A stretch of 63,685 nucleotides of DNA, the filler included, from an uncultured archaeon (GTDB lineage Archaea > Iainarchaeota > Iainarchaeia > Iainarchaeales > 1-14-0-10-31-34), in NCBI GenBank assembly GCA_964442255.1. It is 4 parts of 4 records of this genome, joined end to end, with 100 filler letters (N's around TTAATTAATTAA, not from the genome) between each part and the next. Parts side by side here need not be neighbours in the genome. Positions count along the whole stretch, not along the records: positions 25,720 to 51,315 come from CAYTYC010000022.1; 3 more parts are not named here. One strand, given 5' to 3'. The stretch's first letter is position 1, and every line of letters begins with the position of its first letter. Below are positions 3,002 to 50,981 of this stretch, piece by piece. Made by a program: the position numbers and the translations under genes. The notes beneath the pieces are model-generated. The model was not told the origin of the DNA. It made no database searches and saw only the letters and a list, made by a program, of their open reading frames with translations.

Positions 3002-3111
3002 ATATCCGGGGCTTGCTTTTGGTCAGCCCCCCTGACAGTTTCCCCAGTTTTTCCATGTCCTCAACCGCCACCCAATGTCCGGGGCTTGCTTTTGGTCAGC
3101 TCCCCTGACAG
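3002..3111. repeat. Repeat-insert-repeat unit: 37-bp direct repeats (3002-3038, 3075-3111) around a 36-bp unique segment
   Basis: atatccggggcttgcttttggtcagcccccctgacag vs atgtccggggcttgcttttggtcagctcccctgacag (2 mismatches). Internal hairpin potential (ggggct/agcccc, gtcag/ctgac). Confidence 0.85.
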
Positions 3112-3755: not shown

Positions 3756-4188
3756 CTGCGGCTCACCCCATTAAAAAAGGTGATAAATGTTTTTTAATTA
3801 ATGGGAAAGCCTTAAATTCACTCCAAACCATTATTATGTAGATGTCACAAAGGGTCAAGTCAATCCGGAGCAGGGAGGACATTCCCGGGGAAAATTTGGT
3901 CAAGCTTACCCGGGAAAGCCTTCTTATCCCGAAAGGCAGCGGGAAATGTGGAGGGCTTGGCTTAAAAGGGCTGAATACAGGCGCCTAAGGCCCTGACCTT
4001 TAAATACAACTGCGTGCATGTCTGCCCGAGGTGCGCAACTTCTGTGAGCTGACCTTTTTAAGGCCCTGGCCTTTAACCTTAACGCCAAGAAGCCTATAAC
4101 CTAAACTTTGTTAGGTTATAGATGAATTGGCATAACCTAACAATAGATTTATAAAAACAATAAGGGTAAAATAAATAAGGTGTAAAAA

Positions 4189-4608
4189 GTGAAATACAGT
4201 TTTGATAAGAGTGCCCATTCCGTTTATACACTGAACTACCATTTTGTTCAGTGCATCAAATACAGAAGAAATGTTTTAGATTTTCCTGAAATAATTGATG
4301 AACTGAAGTCAAGAACGAAAAAGATAGCAGAGAGCTATGGCATTGATATTTTGAGCATTGAAACCGATTTAGACCATGTTCATATTCTATTCAAGTGCAA
4401 GCCACAGACTAACCTAATTAAGTTTGTGAACAATTGGAAAAGTGCAACCTCAAAAGTTCTGCAAAGAAAATTCAAAAAACAGATAAAGAGCAAGTTATGG
4501 AAAAACACTTTTTGGAGTGGAAGCTATTGTTTGATAACAACAGGGCAGACAACATTAGACCAAATAAAAAAGTATGTTGAAAGTCAAGGGAAGGGAAAAG
4601 AATTATGA
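4189..4608 (+). CDS. tnpA: IS200/IS605 Y1 HUH transposase
   Basis: HSVYTLNYHFVQCIKYRR, HUH motif DHVHIL, LWKNTFWSGSY, catalytic Tyr in KKYVESQ. Confidence 0.96.
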   Translation: MKYSFDKSAHSVYTLNYHFVQCIKYRRNVLDFPEIIDELKSRTKKIAESYGIDILSIETDLDHVHILFKCKPQTNLIKFVNNWKSATSKVLQRKFKKQIKSKLWKNTFWSGSYCLITTGQTTLDQIKKYVESQGKGKEL

Positions 4609-5759
4609 TGGCATACAAGTTTAGGTTGTATCCAACAGTTCAACAAGAACCGATGTTGCTAAAAACATTTGATTTGTGCAGGTTCACATATAACCAGCTT
4701 TTAGAAATGCTGAACAAACAAGAAAAGATAAACAGAGGAGAAATTCAGCATACTCTTGTTGCTTTGAAAAAACAACACCCAGAACTGCAAGAGGTTTATT
4801 CAAAGACTTTGCAGTATGAGTGCCATCGCTTGTTTGGCAATCTGCGAGCATTAAGCAAATTAAAAAAGCAAGGGAGAAAAGTTGGAAGGTTGCGATTCAA
4901 GGGAAAGGAGTGGTTCAAAACTATTCAGTTCAATCAATCAGGATACAAGCTAACTAAAACAGGTAAAAGGCACGATAAACTGGAGCTGTCAAAAATTGGT
5001 TCGCTGAAAATAAGATGCCACAGAAAAGTTTTAGGGAAAATAAAGCAAATAACAATCAAGAAAACTGCTGGAAAATGGTATGCAATTCTGGTAACTGATA
5101 CAGTTCGCAAACTCAAGAAAGGAACAAAAAGTTTGGGAATTGATTTGGGCATAATCAATTTTGTTGCAGACAGTGAGGGAAACAAAATCAGTTCTCCCTT
5201 ATTTTTGAAAAAGAGTTTGAACAAAATAAAACAAGCATACAAGGATTTGAGCAGAAAAAAGAAGGGAAGCAATAACAGGCAAAAAACAAGGCAAAGGCTT
5301 GGCAAGCTATTTGAAAAAGTTGAAAACCAGAGAAACGATTTTCTGCACAAGGTTTCCACTAACTACATTCAAGAATGCAATACGCTTGTTCTGGAAAAAC
5401 TGCAAATCAAAAACATGGCGAGAAAGCAAAAATATTGGAACAAGAGAAATTTTATGGATTGTTCTTGGGGCAAATTCATTTCTATGCTGAAATGCAAGGC
5501 TGAAAGTGCTGGCGTTGAAGTGCTTGAAGTGAACCCGAAGAACACAAGCAAAATGTGCAGCAATTGCGGAATGCTGCAAAAAATCCTATTATCGCAAAGA
5601 ACATACTCTTGTGAATGTGGGCTGGAAATGGATAGGGATGTAAATTCCGCTAAAAACATATTGGCTTTGGGACAAGGCTTTGTGGAGAACGAAAGCAAAG
5701 TAAGTAGTTCTATGAAGCAAGAAGCCATATCCTCAACAGGAGATGCAATCTCATGTTAG
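4605..5759 (+). CDS. tnpB: TnpB RNA-guided endonuclease
   Basis: AYKFRLYPT N-terminus, RuvC-I GIDLG, RuvC-II VLEKL, zinc finger CSNC...CECG, RuvC-III DRDVNSAKNI. All three catalytic acids are present. Confidence 0.96.
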   Translation: MMAYKFRLYPTVQQEPMLLKTFDLCRFTYNQLLEMLNKQEKINRGEIQHTLVALKKQHPELQEVYSKTLQYECHRLFGNLRALSKLKKQGRKVGRLRFKGKEWFKTIQFNQSGYKLTKTGKRHDKLELSKIGSLKIRCHRKVLGKIKQITIKKTAGKWYAILVTDTVRKLKKGTKSLGIDLGIINFVADSEGNKISSPLFLKKSLNKIKQAYKDLSRKKKGSNNRQKTRQRLGKLFEKVENQRNDFLHKVSTNYIQECNTLVLEKLQIKNMARKQKYWNKRNFMDCSWGKFISMLKCKAESAGVEVLEVNPKNTSKMCSNCGMLQKILLSQRTYSCECGLEMDRDVNSAKNILALGQGFVENESKVSSSMKQEAISSTGDAISC

Positions 5760-5790
5760 GTTATGGTAGTTCACATACAACTGCCCAATC
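5690..5790 (+). ncRNA. Predicted omegaRNA/reRNA 3' region overlapping the tnpB end; guide begins at 5775 (atacaactgcccaatc...)
   Basis: Inferred from established IS605 architecture plus the right-end hairpin and TCAC boundary seen here. The 5' boundary is not determined. Confidence 0.55.
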
Positions 5791-5910
5791 CTCTACGGGA
5801 ACTTCTACAAGCCGCACTGACCTTTGCCAAAACCCTAACCTTTAAATACAACCTTTGAATTATCTATTACCAAAGGAAAAACTTTTTTTCCCCGATGGCG
5901 GCGCAAAAAA

Positions 5911-25849: not shown

Positions 25850-25959
25850 CAGCCCTTTCCCGCCGCCAATTTCACTAAGGAAGCGCCAATTTTCCGCCGC
25901 CATTTCGGGGCAAAAGCGCCAGCAGACTTTTCCACCGCCAATTTCACTAAGGAAGCGCC
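25850..25959. repeat. Repeat-insert-repeat unit: ~37-38-bp direct repeats (25850-25887, 25923-25959) around 35 bp
   Basis: The 25-bp core ccgccaatttcactaaggaagcgcc is identical at 25863 and 25935; the 5' part is degenerate. The insert partly resembles the repeat. Confidence 0.7.
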
Positions 25960-25972
25960 CAATGCAAATGCA

Positions 25973-45985: not shown

Positions 45986-47548
45986 TTAAGAGGCAATTAT
46001 TTTAATTGGCTGCCCAACCGGCTTTTCCGGGGTTTCTTCCGGCCCAGGCAAAGGGAAATGCGCTGCATTGTATGCCTTGAACACGTCAATTATCCCGTGT
46101 CCCATGAATTCGTCCCAGTTGTTTCCTTTTTCCGTAGACTGAATTATCGGGTCAATGTCTTTATGCGGGTTGGTGCTTGTTTTTGGTTTCGTGTTGCTTT
46201 CAATGATTTCCTTCACTTCCTCCGGCGCAAGACCCGGGTTTTTGTTTAGTATTATTGCCGCAAGAGATGAAACGTGCGGCGCTGACATGCTTGTCCCTGA
46301 AAACCAGGTGTAGTATTCTCCTCCGTTGCAGGTTAAATCCGCGTTTCCTTCTAAGGGGTAGCAGGAGTAAGTTGAAAGCACTCCTCCTCCCGGAGCCATT
46401 ACATCCAGCGCCTCTCCGTAATTGCTGAAGCACGCCCTTCTTCCGGCATTGGTTGTTTCATCCACGCATGCCTGTGTGCAGGTTCCGTTCAGGCAAAACC
46501 CTCTTTCGCCTATGTCGTCATGGTATACTGCGCCAACTGCGATTACTTTTGAGCCGCATGCAGGGCTGCTTACACCGGAATTTTCGTTTCCGGCTGAAGC
46601 CACCACCACTATTCCCTGCTCTACTGCCTGGTTTGCCTTGTCAGCCAGATATTCCCCGTCGCAGTGGCCGGGATAGTTTCCGCCTCCAAGGCTTAAGTTT
46701 ATTACGTCCATTCCGTTTTCAACAGCCCATTCAATTGCATTGGCAATGTCCCATGCATGGCAGTAACCGTCTTCATTGCATACTTTAAGTGAATAAATTT
46801 CCGGGCCAGAGTAAACGCCTTTCGCGTAATCAGGTGAAGGAAAACCGTATTCGTTTTCCACTTCAGTTAAGCCAAAGCCCGTGATTATCCCAATTACGTT
46901 TGTTCCGTGGCCTGCCCAGTCCAGCGGAGTCTGGTCGTGAATGTACCTGCAGCTTGTCTTTGCACTGCAAAACACTTCCATTCCTGCAATTGTTTCACTT
47001 ATCTCCGAATGGTTTGGGTCAACCCCTGTGTCAATTACCGCAATCTTAACATTGTTTTCAGCACCGGCGCCTGAAGTAGTGTGGGGAATTTTTTTTCTTG
47101 GCGGAGAGCTCCAAACTTTGTCCGCGTTAAGGAATTCCGCAGCGCTTAACCCTCTTACCCTGTAAATTTTGTCTTCTTCTGCCATTCCCTTTCGCACAAG
47201 GCTTTTTGCGGTGCGGGAATCGCATTCCATTGCAATTGCATCTGAAAGCGCACCAACAATCCTGCATTTTTTGGAGCTTAAATCATTTTTATATTTTAAA
47301 TTGTCTTGCCTTAAAATTATCCTTTCTTTTCTTTCCCCTGAAAACTTTTCAGTTAAAGGGGTTACCTTAACAATCTTTTTTTCAACTTTTTTTCCGTTTT
47401 CAATTCCCACGGCATTTACAATTTCAAATGAATTAAGCCTGAGTGAATTCAAGTTAAACGGATTTAACTTCGGGTTAACGGAAAAAGCAGAGGCGGTTCC
47501 GCTGAATAAAACCAGTGCAATCAAAACCGTAATCCATTCTTTTCCCAT
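45986..47548 (-). CDS. Secreted subtilisin-like S8 serine protease
   Basis: Catalytic triad motifs IDTG, GHGT, GTSMSAPHV; signal peptide. Confidence 0.93.
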   Translation of the reverse strand: MGKEWITVLIALVLFSGTASAFSVNPKLNPFNLNSLRLNSFEIVNAVGIENGKKVEKKIVKVTPLTEKFSGERKERIILRQDNLKYKNDLSSKKCRIVGALSDAIAMECDSRTAKSLVRKGMAEEDKIYRVRGLSAAEFLNADKVWSSPPRKKIPHTTSGAGAENNVKIAVIDTGVDPNHSEISETIAGMEVFCSAKTSCRYIHDQTPLDWAGHGTNVIGIITGFGLTEVENEYGFPSPDYAKGVYSGPEIYSLKVCNEDGYCHAWDIANAIEWAVENGMDVINLSLGGGNYPGHCDGEYLADKANQAVEQGIVVVASAGNENSGVSSPACGSKVIAVGAVYHDDIGERGFCLNGTCTQACVDETTNAGRRACFSNYGEALDVMAPGGGVLSTYSCYPLEGNADLTCNGGEYYTWFSGTSMSAPHVSSLAAIILNKNPGLAPEEVKEIIESNTKPKTSTNPHKDIDPIIQSTEKGNNWDEFMGHGIIDVFKAYNAAHFPLPGPEETPEKPVGQPIKIIAS

Positions 47549-47653: not shown

Positions 47654-48593
47654 TGTTACGTGACAGCGCTTATGACTCCGTTTTTTCGCTTGTTTCTATA
47701 AACTTGGTTGGGCGTTCTGTATTTAAGGCTTGAGTGTGGCGTGTTGTTGTATTCGCGCGTAAAGCGCGCCAACAACTGGTTGGCGTGGGCAATGCTGCGC
47801 ACAGTGTAGCGGGAGAGGTATTGCTTGATTTTTTTGACTACCGCTTCTGCTTTGCCGTTGCATTTTGGGTTGTGGACGCGGGTGCGAATGTGTTTGATTC
47901 CTTTGAGTTGTGCATCAAAGTTTTTGCGGTATTGGCGGCCGTTGTCTGTTAGCATGGCTTTGAATCCGCCTGTTTGTTTTCTGGCTAACCTGAGGTTGTC
48001 GAGAGTGTTTTCAAGCGTTGACCGCTCATACGCCTTTAACGCAAACAGTTTTCTGGAAGCGTCATCCTCGTAGAATGAAAAATAACAGCGTACTCCGTGT
48101 AAAATGCGTTTTCTGCTCCAATCAGTGTGCATTAGAGACAATGCGTGTTTTCGCTCATACCGGCGTACCTTTACTTTTGGTTTTGGTTGTTCAGGAAACC
48201 ATTTTTTCTTATAACGCTGTATTGTCCTCAAACAGCGTTTTTTGAGCTTCAACCACGTTAACGTAGTTGACAGGCCTTTTGATAAAAGAGCCTTCATTTC
48301 ATCCAATAACGGTTGAATGGTCTTGTTCCAAACCCGCTTTGCGGTCCGCTTAAAGCGCATAGGCTGGCCGGATTGTTTTCGTTTCTTTCACCGGCCAAGA
48401 GTCTTTCTTGGCACTTTTATTGCCTTTTCAAACGCTCGCAAGCTCATGTCGCCCGACATGAGCCTATCCGCAATCTTTTCAACAAAATCGCTACCATACT
48501 TCATAGGGAAAACCTCCATTCCACAAACAAATAATGGAGTTTTCCCCAAAAAAACCTATTTCACAGTGGGGACATATCCGCTGTCACCAAACA
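47654..48593 (-). mobile_element. IS481-family insertion sequence (940 bp)
   Basis: TGT...ACA ends. Imperfect TIR tgttacgtgacagcgcttatg vs tgtttggtgacagcggatatg. Flanks catagt / cttagt differ by one base. Confidence 0.88.
47656..48504 (-). pseudogene. IS481 DDE transposase with an in-frame TGA at 48388-48390
   Basis: GGAGG-preceded ATG at 48504 reads MKYGSDF...VPRKTLGR*KKRKQSGQPMRFK into the rve core (HTD, DDASR, TDNG, NGKAE, YNN..PHSSL). Confidence 0.82.
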
Positions 48594-49603
48594 CTTAGTC
48601 AATGTTCCGGGAATCTTCCTTTCCCAGCCCACGGTGCAGGTTAAAGTAAAGTCTGATGTTTTTGATTCCCCGAACTATGTGCAGTTTGTTCCGCAGGCCC
48701 TTTCCCAGCATGTGAGGCAGATTCCTGAAAACAGCGGTTACTTCCTTGAAAGCTATTACACCGCAACCGGAAAATACCTTAAGACCGAGCTTTACGGCTT
48801 TGATTCAATGGGAAGCAGTGTTCCCCTGCAAAACTCTTTGACAGGCTACGGGCTTGAAGCCGAGGGAGGGGCATTGAAGGGATTTGCGGAGAACGGGTCC
48901 CCTGAAAACCTGTATTTGGGGGTAACCTCTTACAATGAAAGCGCTTATTCCAGGCTTGAAATCATTACCCCGGACGGGGTTCCGCACACTTTTAACAGCG
49001 GAACAGACTTCTTCAAGTCCGCCTATTACCCTCCGTGGAATATCTGCTCAACTTCCTTCGCAAACAGGGTTATTGCCCCTCCGTGCCAAGTGGGGCTGTA
49101 CCAGATCCACTGGTTTGATTCGGGGCTGTTCAACTTTCGCGGAATCTTCACTTCATCCGCAATCTTCATTGTACCAGATCCACTGGTTTGATTCGGGGCT
49201 GTTCAACGGCGGCCCCTTTGAATTGCGGCAGAACGCCTACTTTGACGGCTCAACCTTTACTGTAATGTTGCCTCTGCCAACGCCTGACCCTGAATCCATT
49301 ATTGAAAACAGTTCCGAAAACCCGGTGGATGTCGAGGTAACACTTAAACTCCGGAAATATTCTTCGGACTGGGCCTGGCAGGACGTGGAAGTGTTTCTGG
49401 GCAATTCCCCGAAAACAATCCCAGCATACAACTTCCTGGACTTAACCGATTATTGGAATGTTTCACAGGGGCTGAATTACGGAAGCTACCGCGCGTACCT
49501 AAAGATTACCTCCGCGGATGGGGGGAAAATTGTGAGAACAAAAAACTTTAATGTCGTGAAACCAAAGTCCCAGGAAGAACCAATGGCTCCGGTTATCCCC
49601 TGA
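48594..49603 (+). pseudogene. Truncated, frameshifted gene for a beta-rich (surface-type) protein
   Basis: The frame is open right from the IS481 end. Track ORFs 48634-49191 and 48935-49603 fuse into one frame if the 73-bp unit at 49097-49169 is removed (...LYQIHWFDSGLFNGGPFELRQ...). Confidence 0.7.
49097..49207. repeat. Repeat-insert-repeat unit: perfect 38-bp direct repeats (49097-49134, 49170-49207) around a 35-bp insert
   Basis: tgtaccagatccactggtttgattcggggctgttcaac twice; insert tttcgcggaatcttcacttcatccgcaatcttcat. Confidence 0.9.
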
Positions 49604-49622: not shown

Positions 49623-50981
49623 TCAGTCAACAATCATTTCAACAGGCTCTGCCCTTCTCTCCGGCTTTTCTTCAGTTGCCGCGTTCACTGCTGCAAGTGC
49701 ATCGATTACCCCTGATCCGTAAAAGTCATCCCTTCCTGGTGCCCCCAAATCCCGTGCAGTGCTTTCAATTATTTCCTTTACTTCTGCTGGCGTAAGCCCG
49801 GAGTTTTTCTCTAAAACCAATGCAGCCAATGCTGCGACATGCGGAGATGACTGGCTTGTCCCAAACATCCAAGCATACCATACACTGCCGCAGTCTCCTG
49901 CTGCAATGCAGGAGTATGAAGAAAGAATTGCTGCCCCTGGCGCCATTACGTCCAATGCTTCCCCGTAGTTGCTGAAGCAAACCCTTTGATCTGGTTGGGT
50001 TGCTGCATCAGCGCAATTCCCGTAGTCTTGGCTGCCGATGTCCGCATGGTAAACTGCACCAACTGCAATAACCTTTGAGCCGCATGCAGGGCTGCTTACA
50101 CCGGAATTTTCGTTTCCGGCTGAAGCCACAACTATTGTGCCCTGCTCCACGGCCCAGTTTGCTTTTGCAGCCAAAGCGCTTCCGTCGCAGTGCCCTCCGT
50201 AATTGCCTCCTCCAAGGCTTAAGTTGATTACGTCTGCCCCTTGTGCTACTGCCCACTCAATTCCGGCTGAAACATCTGAAGTAAAGCATCCGGCATTTCC
50301 GCATACCCTTGCCGAAAGAATTCCTGCATTTGGGGCAACACCTGTTGCCCAATTAGGGGAAGGAAAGCCATAAGTGTTGGTTATTTCGTACACCCCGTTT
50401 GCTGTCACAATCCCAATTACATGCGTTCCGTGCCCGTCCTTGTCCTCTGTTCCGCCAGGGCCGCGGGCAAAATTGGCTTTTGCGATAATGCTGTCGCTTA
50501 TCTCTGGGTGTGAATCATCAACCCCACTATCCAAAACCGCAACCGTCACTCCTGTGCCGCGGATTCCTTTTTCGTTCCACACCCTTTCAGCGCGAATGTA
50601 AGCATCTGCGTTCAAATCATGCAGCTTAAGGAGTTCATCTTTTTCCGCTAAACCGTTCCCCAGCAATTCTTCAGCTGTTTTCGCTTCGCACGACAAAGCC
50701 AAGCCTTCAATCAGCCTGTGCACTACAGAGCATTTTCCTTCCATTAAAGCTTTTTCCTGTTCCAAGCCTGAAGCCTTGGAGAGTATCCGGATTTTTCCGT
50801 TTGAAGAAGCATAGGGAAAGGGCTGTCCAATTCTTTTTTCCAGCAGTTTTCCGTTCTTTACTTTGACTGCGTTAATTTCGTTGTGGTTTTTTTCCGCAGA
50901 AAAAAAGGCCAAGGCGCTTCCGGCCAATAAAAAGAACATCAACAGGAAAGCAATCCACGTTTTCTTCATGAAATCCGCCAA
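49623..50981 (-). CDS. Secreted subtilisin-like S8 serine protease (paralog)
   Basis: LDSG, GHGTHV, GTSQSSPHV; signal peptide. Confidence 0.93.
   Translation of the reverse strand: MADFMKKTWIAFLLMFFLLAGSALAFFSAEKNHNEINAVKVKNGKLLEKRIGQPFPYASSNGKIRILSKASGLEQEKALMEGKCSVVHRLIEGLALSCEAKTAEELLGNGLAEKDELLKLHDLNADAYIRAERVWNEKGIRGTGVTVAVLDSGVDDSHPEISDSIIAKANFARGPGGTEDKDGHGTHVIGIVTANGVYEITNTYGFPSPNWATGVAPNAGILSARVCGNAGCFTSDVSAGIEWAVAQGADVINLSLGGGNYGGHCDGSALAAKANWAVEQGTIVVASAGNENSGVSSPACGSKVIAVGAVYHADIGSQDYGNCADAATQPDQRVCFSNYGEALDVMAPGAAILSSYSCIAAGDCGSVWYAWMFGTSQSSPHVAALAALVLEKNSGLTPAEVKEIIESTARDLGAPGRDDFYGSGVIDALAAVNAATEEKPERRAEPVEMIVD

Follow-up and report, generated by a model that had tools for sequence, protein, structure and literature searches.

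The question raised by this locus is why a gene of an uncultured archaeon should carry a long, perfect direct repeat around a short stretch of unrelated sequence. The gene lies in a stretch of 63,685 nucleotides (hereafter, the window), which consists of several contigs of one genome joined by N linkers, and the whole assembly of that genome (1.277 Mb in 51 contigs, 93.8% complete) was surveyed with it. Exactly as the original prediction had it, the 38-bp sequence of positions 49097-49134 recurs at 49170-49207, with 35 bp between the copies and a period of 73 bp. Since the first T of the duplication can be assigned to the insert, a duplication of 37 bp with an insert of 36 bp fits as well as 38 + 35, and base 36 of the donor match described below coincides with the start of the second target copy. 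The best reading is 37 + 36, since the donor match speaks for it, as do the GGCT flank at 49094-49097 and the length most common among the other scars in this genome. The features of the locus are as follows.

48535-49603, plus strand: frameshifted orphan gene that received the insert, matching no Pfam family
49094-49097, plus strand: RGCY flank (GGCT) directly outside the 37-bp duplication, a flank motif common to other scars
49097-49134 (49098-49134 if 37 bp), no strand assigned: first target copy, a 38-bp maximal match
49135-49170, minus strand: spacer-sized insert of 35-36 bp, an exact copy of contig C3:62838-62873 (xerA)
49170-49207, no strand assigned: second target copy, identical to the first

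Deletion of 73 bp had been predicted to restore a single reading frame, and it does: one open frame of 298 codons runs from the GTG at 48634, and both halves of the gene score as coding where expected (0.20 and 0.19), whereas every other frame is negative and has stops. The open frame extends up to 48535 with no ATG upstream of that GTG, and the 5' end of the gene may already have been damaged before the insertion. An integrase-core (rve) ORF on the minus strand at 47656-48505, probably an IS transposase, stands head to head with this end, and two subtilase paralogs (45986-47548 and 49623-50981), which have 229 nt in common at 80% identity, flank the region. No orthologs of the scarred gene were found in 214 other genomes of the phylum or among longer proteins, and a comparison with 1.84 billion representative proteins returned one weak match of 25 residues. 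Because the gene has no usable orthologs, the ortholog test was moved to another scarred gene, cysS.

The insert had been described as foreign, a view that its source overturns. The 36 nt at 49135-49170 match C3:62838-62873 of the same genome exactly, within a gene for a 288-aa archaeal XerA recombinase (above the NF040815 cut-off), and correspond to about codons 88-98, so that the minus-strand peptide MKIADEVKIPR, present as predicted, begins with a methionine that is an internal residue of XerA. The insert is of spacer length, unrelated to its target and copied from elsewhere, in this case from the cell's own xerA.

The same geometry recurs throughout the genome. Among 86 short-range repeat loci with periods of 50-110, 30 fall at a period of 71-76 (61 periods scanned; binomial p = 3e-10). 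Stricter settings gave 29 loci with a period of 71-76, from which two tandem arrays (C6:45316 and C23:22578) and three hairpin or tRNA-end repeats (C17:16801, C17:27763 and C21:15112) were removed and to which one locus of period 79 (C33:6907) was added, leaving 25 curated scars in 1.28 Mb, every one with a different duplicated sequence. Their periods range from 71 to 79 with a mode of 73 (73 in 10 sites, 74 in six, 72 in five, and 71, 75, 76 and 79 once each), which places 21/25 at 72-74. The maximal duplication is 37 bp long in 10 sites, 38 in six, 36 in four, 39 in two, and 33, 35 or 42 in one each, so that 22 of the 25 lie at 36-39 bp around a mode of 37. The target copies are identical in 18 scars and carry one to four mismatches in six, and at the remaining one, on contig C11, the first copy differs at one end. 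Besides the scar in the orphan gene, the window holds two others and a further site outside the count of 25.

3002-3111, no strand assigned: second scar, period 73, with two mismatches between its 37-bp copies and no donor found in the assembly
25855-25963, no strand assigned: third scar, period 72, with four mismatches between its 37-bp copies and no donor found in the assembly
3986-5852, no strand assigned: degenerate site of three copies and two spacer-sized inserts, broken up by a TnpB element, as read from the sequence

Repeated acquisition at one site, that is, array growth, was seen at C11:3649-3904, where two different inserts lie between four copies of one target. Some scars have the form X-Y-X-Y-X, which would reflect later amplification between copies, or assembly effects where they border gaps. 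At C13:2189-2567, two overlapping scars with different inserts have target starts about 23 bp apart on the insert-free sequence and form a local hotspot, and the scars at C13:15213 and C14:24347 sit within copies of a dispersed palindromic repeat family of more than 15 copies. A functional CRISPR array was considered for these loci and rejected, since the duplicated sequence differs from scar to scar and neither an array nor cas1/cas2 was found. The locus in the orphan gene occurs in no RNA run. No scar was seen in 1,785,079 bp (1.79 Mb) from 10 related genomes, where about 35 would be expected at the rate of this genome; in that control scan, four non-array loci of period 72 (L031, L082, L109 and L159) were judged by inspection to be in-frame coding repeats and excluded.

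Sources for the inserts were sought across the set. Five of the 26 inserts have a donor in the assembly (four exact, one at 35/37), one has a partial match (29/36), and 20 have none. At C1:17573 (37 + 35) and C27:6124 (37 + 38), both donor junctions are exact. For seven of the 20-21 unmatched inserts, viral, metagenome and genome collections gave 0 matches; BLAST of all 26 against the relatives' DNA examined gave only two 16-nt matches at chance level, and a search of metagenome contigs did not recover the 38-bp target. The original prediction had proposed to trace the 35-mer and to look for a PAM at the flanks of its source; the source proved to be xerA, and a PAM could not be demonstrated. 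The 5' flank is T-rich in three of five donors against a background of 21% (p = 0.06, n = 5), and with these five donors, which occur on either strand of their genes, neither a PAM nor an RNA origin of the inserts is supported.

Structures of this kind could also arise during library preparation or assembly, as chimeric fragments or mis-resolved graph loops, and some properties of the data would suit that explanation: the depth is only about 7-10, several scars adjoin scaffold gaps with 55-bp overlaps, the junctions are supported by contigs, with no raw read seen crossing both, and one of the two runs consulted (X1) may be the source of the assembly, both runs being from one study; a third run (X3) was left aside for its negligible cover. 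However, an artefact would not avoid long genes, and only 8/25 scars lie in ORFs of at least 150 aa (in the insert-free allele) compared with 318/398 random sites (Fisher p = 9e-7), a count that is blurred by small genes and by sites near gaps. Nor would it remain in frame in a single-copy essential gene. The only cysS gene of the genome (L060) carries an in-frame scar of 75 bp at C27:6124-6235, with an insert derived from C3:55055-55092, which extends the product from 466 to 491 aa and duplicates the motif region before PTVY; the site is empty in 5/5 relatives. Among the eight long-ORF scars, the period is divisible by three in four (three stay open, cysS among them), against two of the other 17, an in-frame bias that is suggestive only. 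Diverged copies (6/25) and a common target motif are likewise foreign to an artefact, and in an independent assembly of X1 one contig stops at 49126 and the next begins at 49178, the behaviour expected of a 31-mer graph when both junctions are real. Among the contig pieces of X1 and X2 that were listed (all but 96), none passes over the 73 bp; at the 31-mer word length an empty allele in X1 would be undetectable. Because the sole cysS has an in-frame scar that is absent from 5/5 relatives, and because six scars have diverged copies, the scars look heritable and not chimeric, and we regard an artefact as highly improbable. Copy number at X-Y-X-Y-X sites beside gaps may nevertheless be a matter of assembly. 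The start of contig C38 (positions 1-40) is a separate assembly blemish, which we take to be Illumina adapter sequence.

An orientation-free alignment of the 25 insert-free targets holds 11.7 bits, compared with 8.18 +/- 0.42 for locally shifted sites (0/30 reach it), and consists of T at +3, an A-rich block at +15 to +18, S-T-G at +31 to +33, and RGCY directly outside either end. The RGCY motif, which was defined post hoc, occurs at 19/50 half-sites against 3.1 +/- 1.7 expected (maximum 9 in 1000) and marks 14/25 sites only; it is not matchable to a real leader, as the arrays of relatives run off their contigs. In the window, the predicted repeat-like traits of the target are all present, namely the ACCAG-5-CTGGT stem and the GTTGAAC at the minus-strand 5' end. 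The minus strand thus opens with GTTG, as do DPANN 37-bp repeats, and the target is alike to three of these at 17-18/37 positions, the GTTG start included. The signal detected, however, was at the duplication's ends and in the bases just beyond them, not in the internal stem. A comparison with CRISPR repeats of the same genome, as had been suggested, found no array in the assembly to compare with, the best match in the assembly to the repeats of four relatives being 25/37, in single copy. The earlier proposal of an integrase-made insertion of foreign DNA at a CRISPR-repeat-like target accordingly keeps its integrase and its target, through this likeness and the genome-wide recurrence of the geometry, and loses the foreign origin.

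Taken together, the targets weakly resemble, in sequence, the 37-bp repeats that accompany cas1-cas2-cas4 modules in DPANN archaea and belong to the Cas12f1 repeat family. Against eight repeats, the likeness reached z = 3.4 for L070, 2.4 for L014, 2.3 for L079, 1.2 for L015, 0.4 for L100, 0.0 for L071 and -0.4 for L007, yet an unrelated 36-bp repeat (L103) also reached 1.8 (8/300). Two repeats seen after the motif was built behaved alike, L152 scoring 13.0 against 11.4 +/- 0.5 (0/1000) and L173 scoring 13.1 against 11.6 +/- 0.5 (1/1000), where 40 shuffled repeats reached z = 1.6 at most. This excess amounts to only about 1.5 nt in 37, and the matching repeats are kin to each other.

The form of the motif also bears on another explanation, in which the strands are nicked about 37 bp apart at RGCY-flanked sites by a different nuclease or recombinase, such as an enzyme of restriction type, and repair captures a fragment of 35-38 bp. 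The strongest part of the motif lies outside the duplication, is near-symmetric and resembles a 4-bp restriction site; GGCC occurs in the genome at 0.65 of expectation, and cas1/cas2 were not found in the assembly. Such an enzyme would, however, need two independent rulers, both equal to the CRISPR repeat and spacer lengths of the phylum; the target interiors resemble real 37-bp repeats, AGCC and GGCT are over-represented and not avoided, and we know of no enzyme that makes such scars. We therefore consider a ruler other than Cas1 distinctly unlikely. In the genome as a whole, GATC (0.25 of expected) is strongly under-represented along with GGCC, which suggests restriction-site avoidance.

Neither cas1 nor cas2 was detected by Pfam in the 51 contigs, and a six-frame hmmsearch --max with profiles from relatives detected no cas1, cas2 or casposase. 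No CRISPR array appears among the repeat loci, and there is one Cas4-like match in the genome. A type V-F (Cas12f1/Cas14a) locus was considered and rejected, the search for Cas12f/TnpB having given nothing beyond one IS605 TnpB, whose TNB-domain match, the only one, lies in the window at 4605-5759. In the phylum, Cas1 scores above the cut-off in 17/215 genomes, several of which have cas1-cas2-cas4 with 37-bp GTTGC...TGCAAC repeats, and the DPANN arrays with such modules and 37-bp repeats have periods of 72-73 (L152), 73-75 (L014) and 74-76 (L070). The Cas1 of the module was not found in viral contigs. A contig of a same-family genome with Cas1 and a reverse transcriptase (L019, G002:C5) was left out, as its gene content looks bacterial and it may be a binning contaminant.

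Two of these modules deserve mention in their own right. In genome G167 (L152:1-10753), a CRISPR array, a type III restriction-modification pair and cas1-cas2-cas4 lie within 11 kb of a tyrosine integrase, at 39% GC in a genome of 52% and with no effector seen on the contig, making this locus a possible mobile adaptation module; since its GC differs by 13 points from that of the genome, binning could drop such a locus. In genome G075 (L070:6875-6948), beside cas1-cas2-cas4, one copy of the L079-type 37-bp repeat abuts the first copy of a different 37-bp type, which looks like a repeat switch within the array.

Solo Cas1 genes of 393-410 aa, with no cas2, occur in three genomes of the same order (L011, L012 and L013) and are presumably casposase-like. 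Their presence brings up the insertion of short fragments by a casposase, the solo Cas1 of a casposon, which, like the enzyme proposed here, is a Cas1-family integrase that duplicates its target. Reported casposase duplications, however, are of 14-15 bp, on substrates with terminal inverted repeats (PMC7786333), in contrast to the 37-bp duplication and 36-bp insert seen here. With no such gene in the assembly and no scars in 400 kb of the three solo-Cas1 carriers, a casposon insertion was rejected, its chance being next to negligible.

The reading that we prefer, and hold to be very probable, is that the scars stem from off-target spacer integration by Cas1-Cas2. During normal adaptation, this complex joins the two 3' ends of the spacer to opposite strands at the two repeat borders, archaeal Cas1-Cas2 also accepts non-CRISPR sites whose borders are a repeat length apart, and the Cas1 of a type II-A system contacts leader positions -1 to -4 (PMC6698737). 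Such an enzyme would be expected to leave duplications of 37 bp around inserts of 34-39 bp, a motif at the junctions, repeated hits and donors that for the most part are not chromosomal. At the window locus, the integrase would be a Cas1-Cas2 complex that measures 37 bp and probably includes Cas4, of the sort seen in DPANN archaea beside GTTGC...TGCAAC repeats. It would have taken up 36 bp of the cell's own xerA and attached the two 3' ends of this fragment to different strands, at points 37 bp apart in a loose chromosomal mimic of a repeat with RGCY just outside the junction. Repair after Cas1-Cas2 joining duplicates the repeat, and gap filling after such a full-site integration would likewise have duplicated the 37 bp. 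The resulting gain of 73 bp would have frameshifted a dispensable or already damaged gene and then been fixed. The same process would account for about 25 scars, with some sites struck again or amplified to X-Y-X-Y-X, and selection would keep the scars mostly outside long genes or in frame.

The geometry, the donor, the recurrence, the motif and the signature of selection are observations, from which the enzyme, its subtype and its place of encoding are deduced. As for where the enzyme is encoded, its genes would lie in an unassembled or unbinned part of the genome, or on a mobile island, or would have been lost recently. Identical copies and exact donors point to recent activity, which makes an unbinned cas locus plausible. 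However, three relatives with such modules have no scars in 735 kb, so the load of this genome needs an extra cause, which we infer to be the loss of a proper leader or of a specificity factor. A bolder version, to which we give some credence while thinking it rather unlikely, is that an orphan Cas4-Cas1-Cas2 module of the Cas12f1 repeat family was carried through the lineage by a mobile island, or worked in trans from another element resident in the cell or from a neighbouring cell, and, having no leader and array of its own, became a genome-wide insertional mutagen.

Events of this kind are already published. Nivala, Shipman and Church reportedly described off-target spacer integration and 'neo-CRISPR' loci in 2018 for the type I-E system of E. 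coli. The locus in the window has the same two marks, namely a duplication of repeat length (37-38 bp, the phylum having 37-bp repeats) and a spacer-length insert copied from elsewhere. As in the E. coli case, a spacer-sized insert and a repeat-length duplication appear at non-CRISPR chromosomal sites (10.1101/148544; PMC7054753; PMC6698737), although overproduced Cas1-Cas2 was needed there, and the natural cases given are circumstantial and from two other species (10.1101/148544). Here, by contrast, one archaeal genome of 1.28 Mb holds about 25 natural scars that are fixed, with RGCY flanks and a ruler of 37 bp, and its assembly shows no cas1. Another parallel is Pyrococcus furiosus Cas1-Cas2 in vitro, an archaeal integrase that uses non-CRISPR sites with repeat-length spacing, G/C borders and a few conserved inner bases; its spacing, however, is 30 bp, on plasmid DNA, with a GTT / -3C motif (PMC6698737), whereas the events described here are spaced at 37 bp, took place in vivo and are inherited. 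The DPANN cas1-cas2-cas4 modules (L010/L070, L014, L101/L152, L173 and L174) share with the scars a 37-bp repeat, a period of 72-77 and a weak but repeatable likeness to the targets, and differ in that this assembly has no such module or array. The type V-F label is given because of repeat likeness alone, no Cas12f effector being seen next to the modules within the contigs examined; the two ends of the L173 repeat look like those of the crRNA portion of an engineered Un1Cas12f1 guide (10.1101/2022.10.20.513037), and Cas14 homologs are reported to occur in DPANN (PMC10606334).

What is new in our work is the xerA donor, the genome-wide count with its controls, the selection signature, the RGCY flank and the link with a DPANN repeat family. 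No report of a genome-wide natural scar load in DPANN archaea was found in the literature searched, where the supplements of key papers may hold natural examples, and no description of a leader code for type V-F adaptation was found there either. Should the orphan-module version be true, its cost would be about 20 fixed hits per Mb, including the in-frame gain of 25 residues at the N-terminus of cysteinyl-tRNA synthetase, and the RGCY flank would be a direct read-out of the leader code of type V-F adaptation. What is known of off-target spacer integration comes mainly from overexpression in E. coli, and about 25 fixed events would make it a real mutational force in a streamlined archaeon, one that kills genes and adds 24-25 residues to proteins, an essential synthetase among them. 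The scars also predict the ruler (37 bp) and the junction preference (RGCY outside the repeat) of the DPANN adaptation module, and would thereby be the record of an enzyme that the assembly does not contain.
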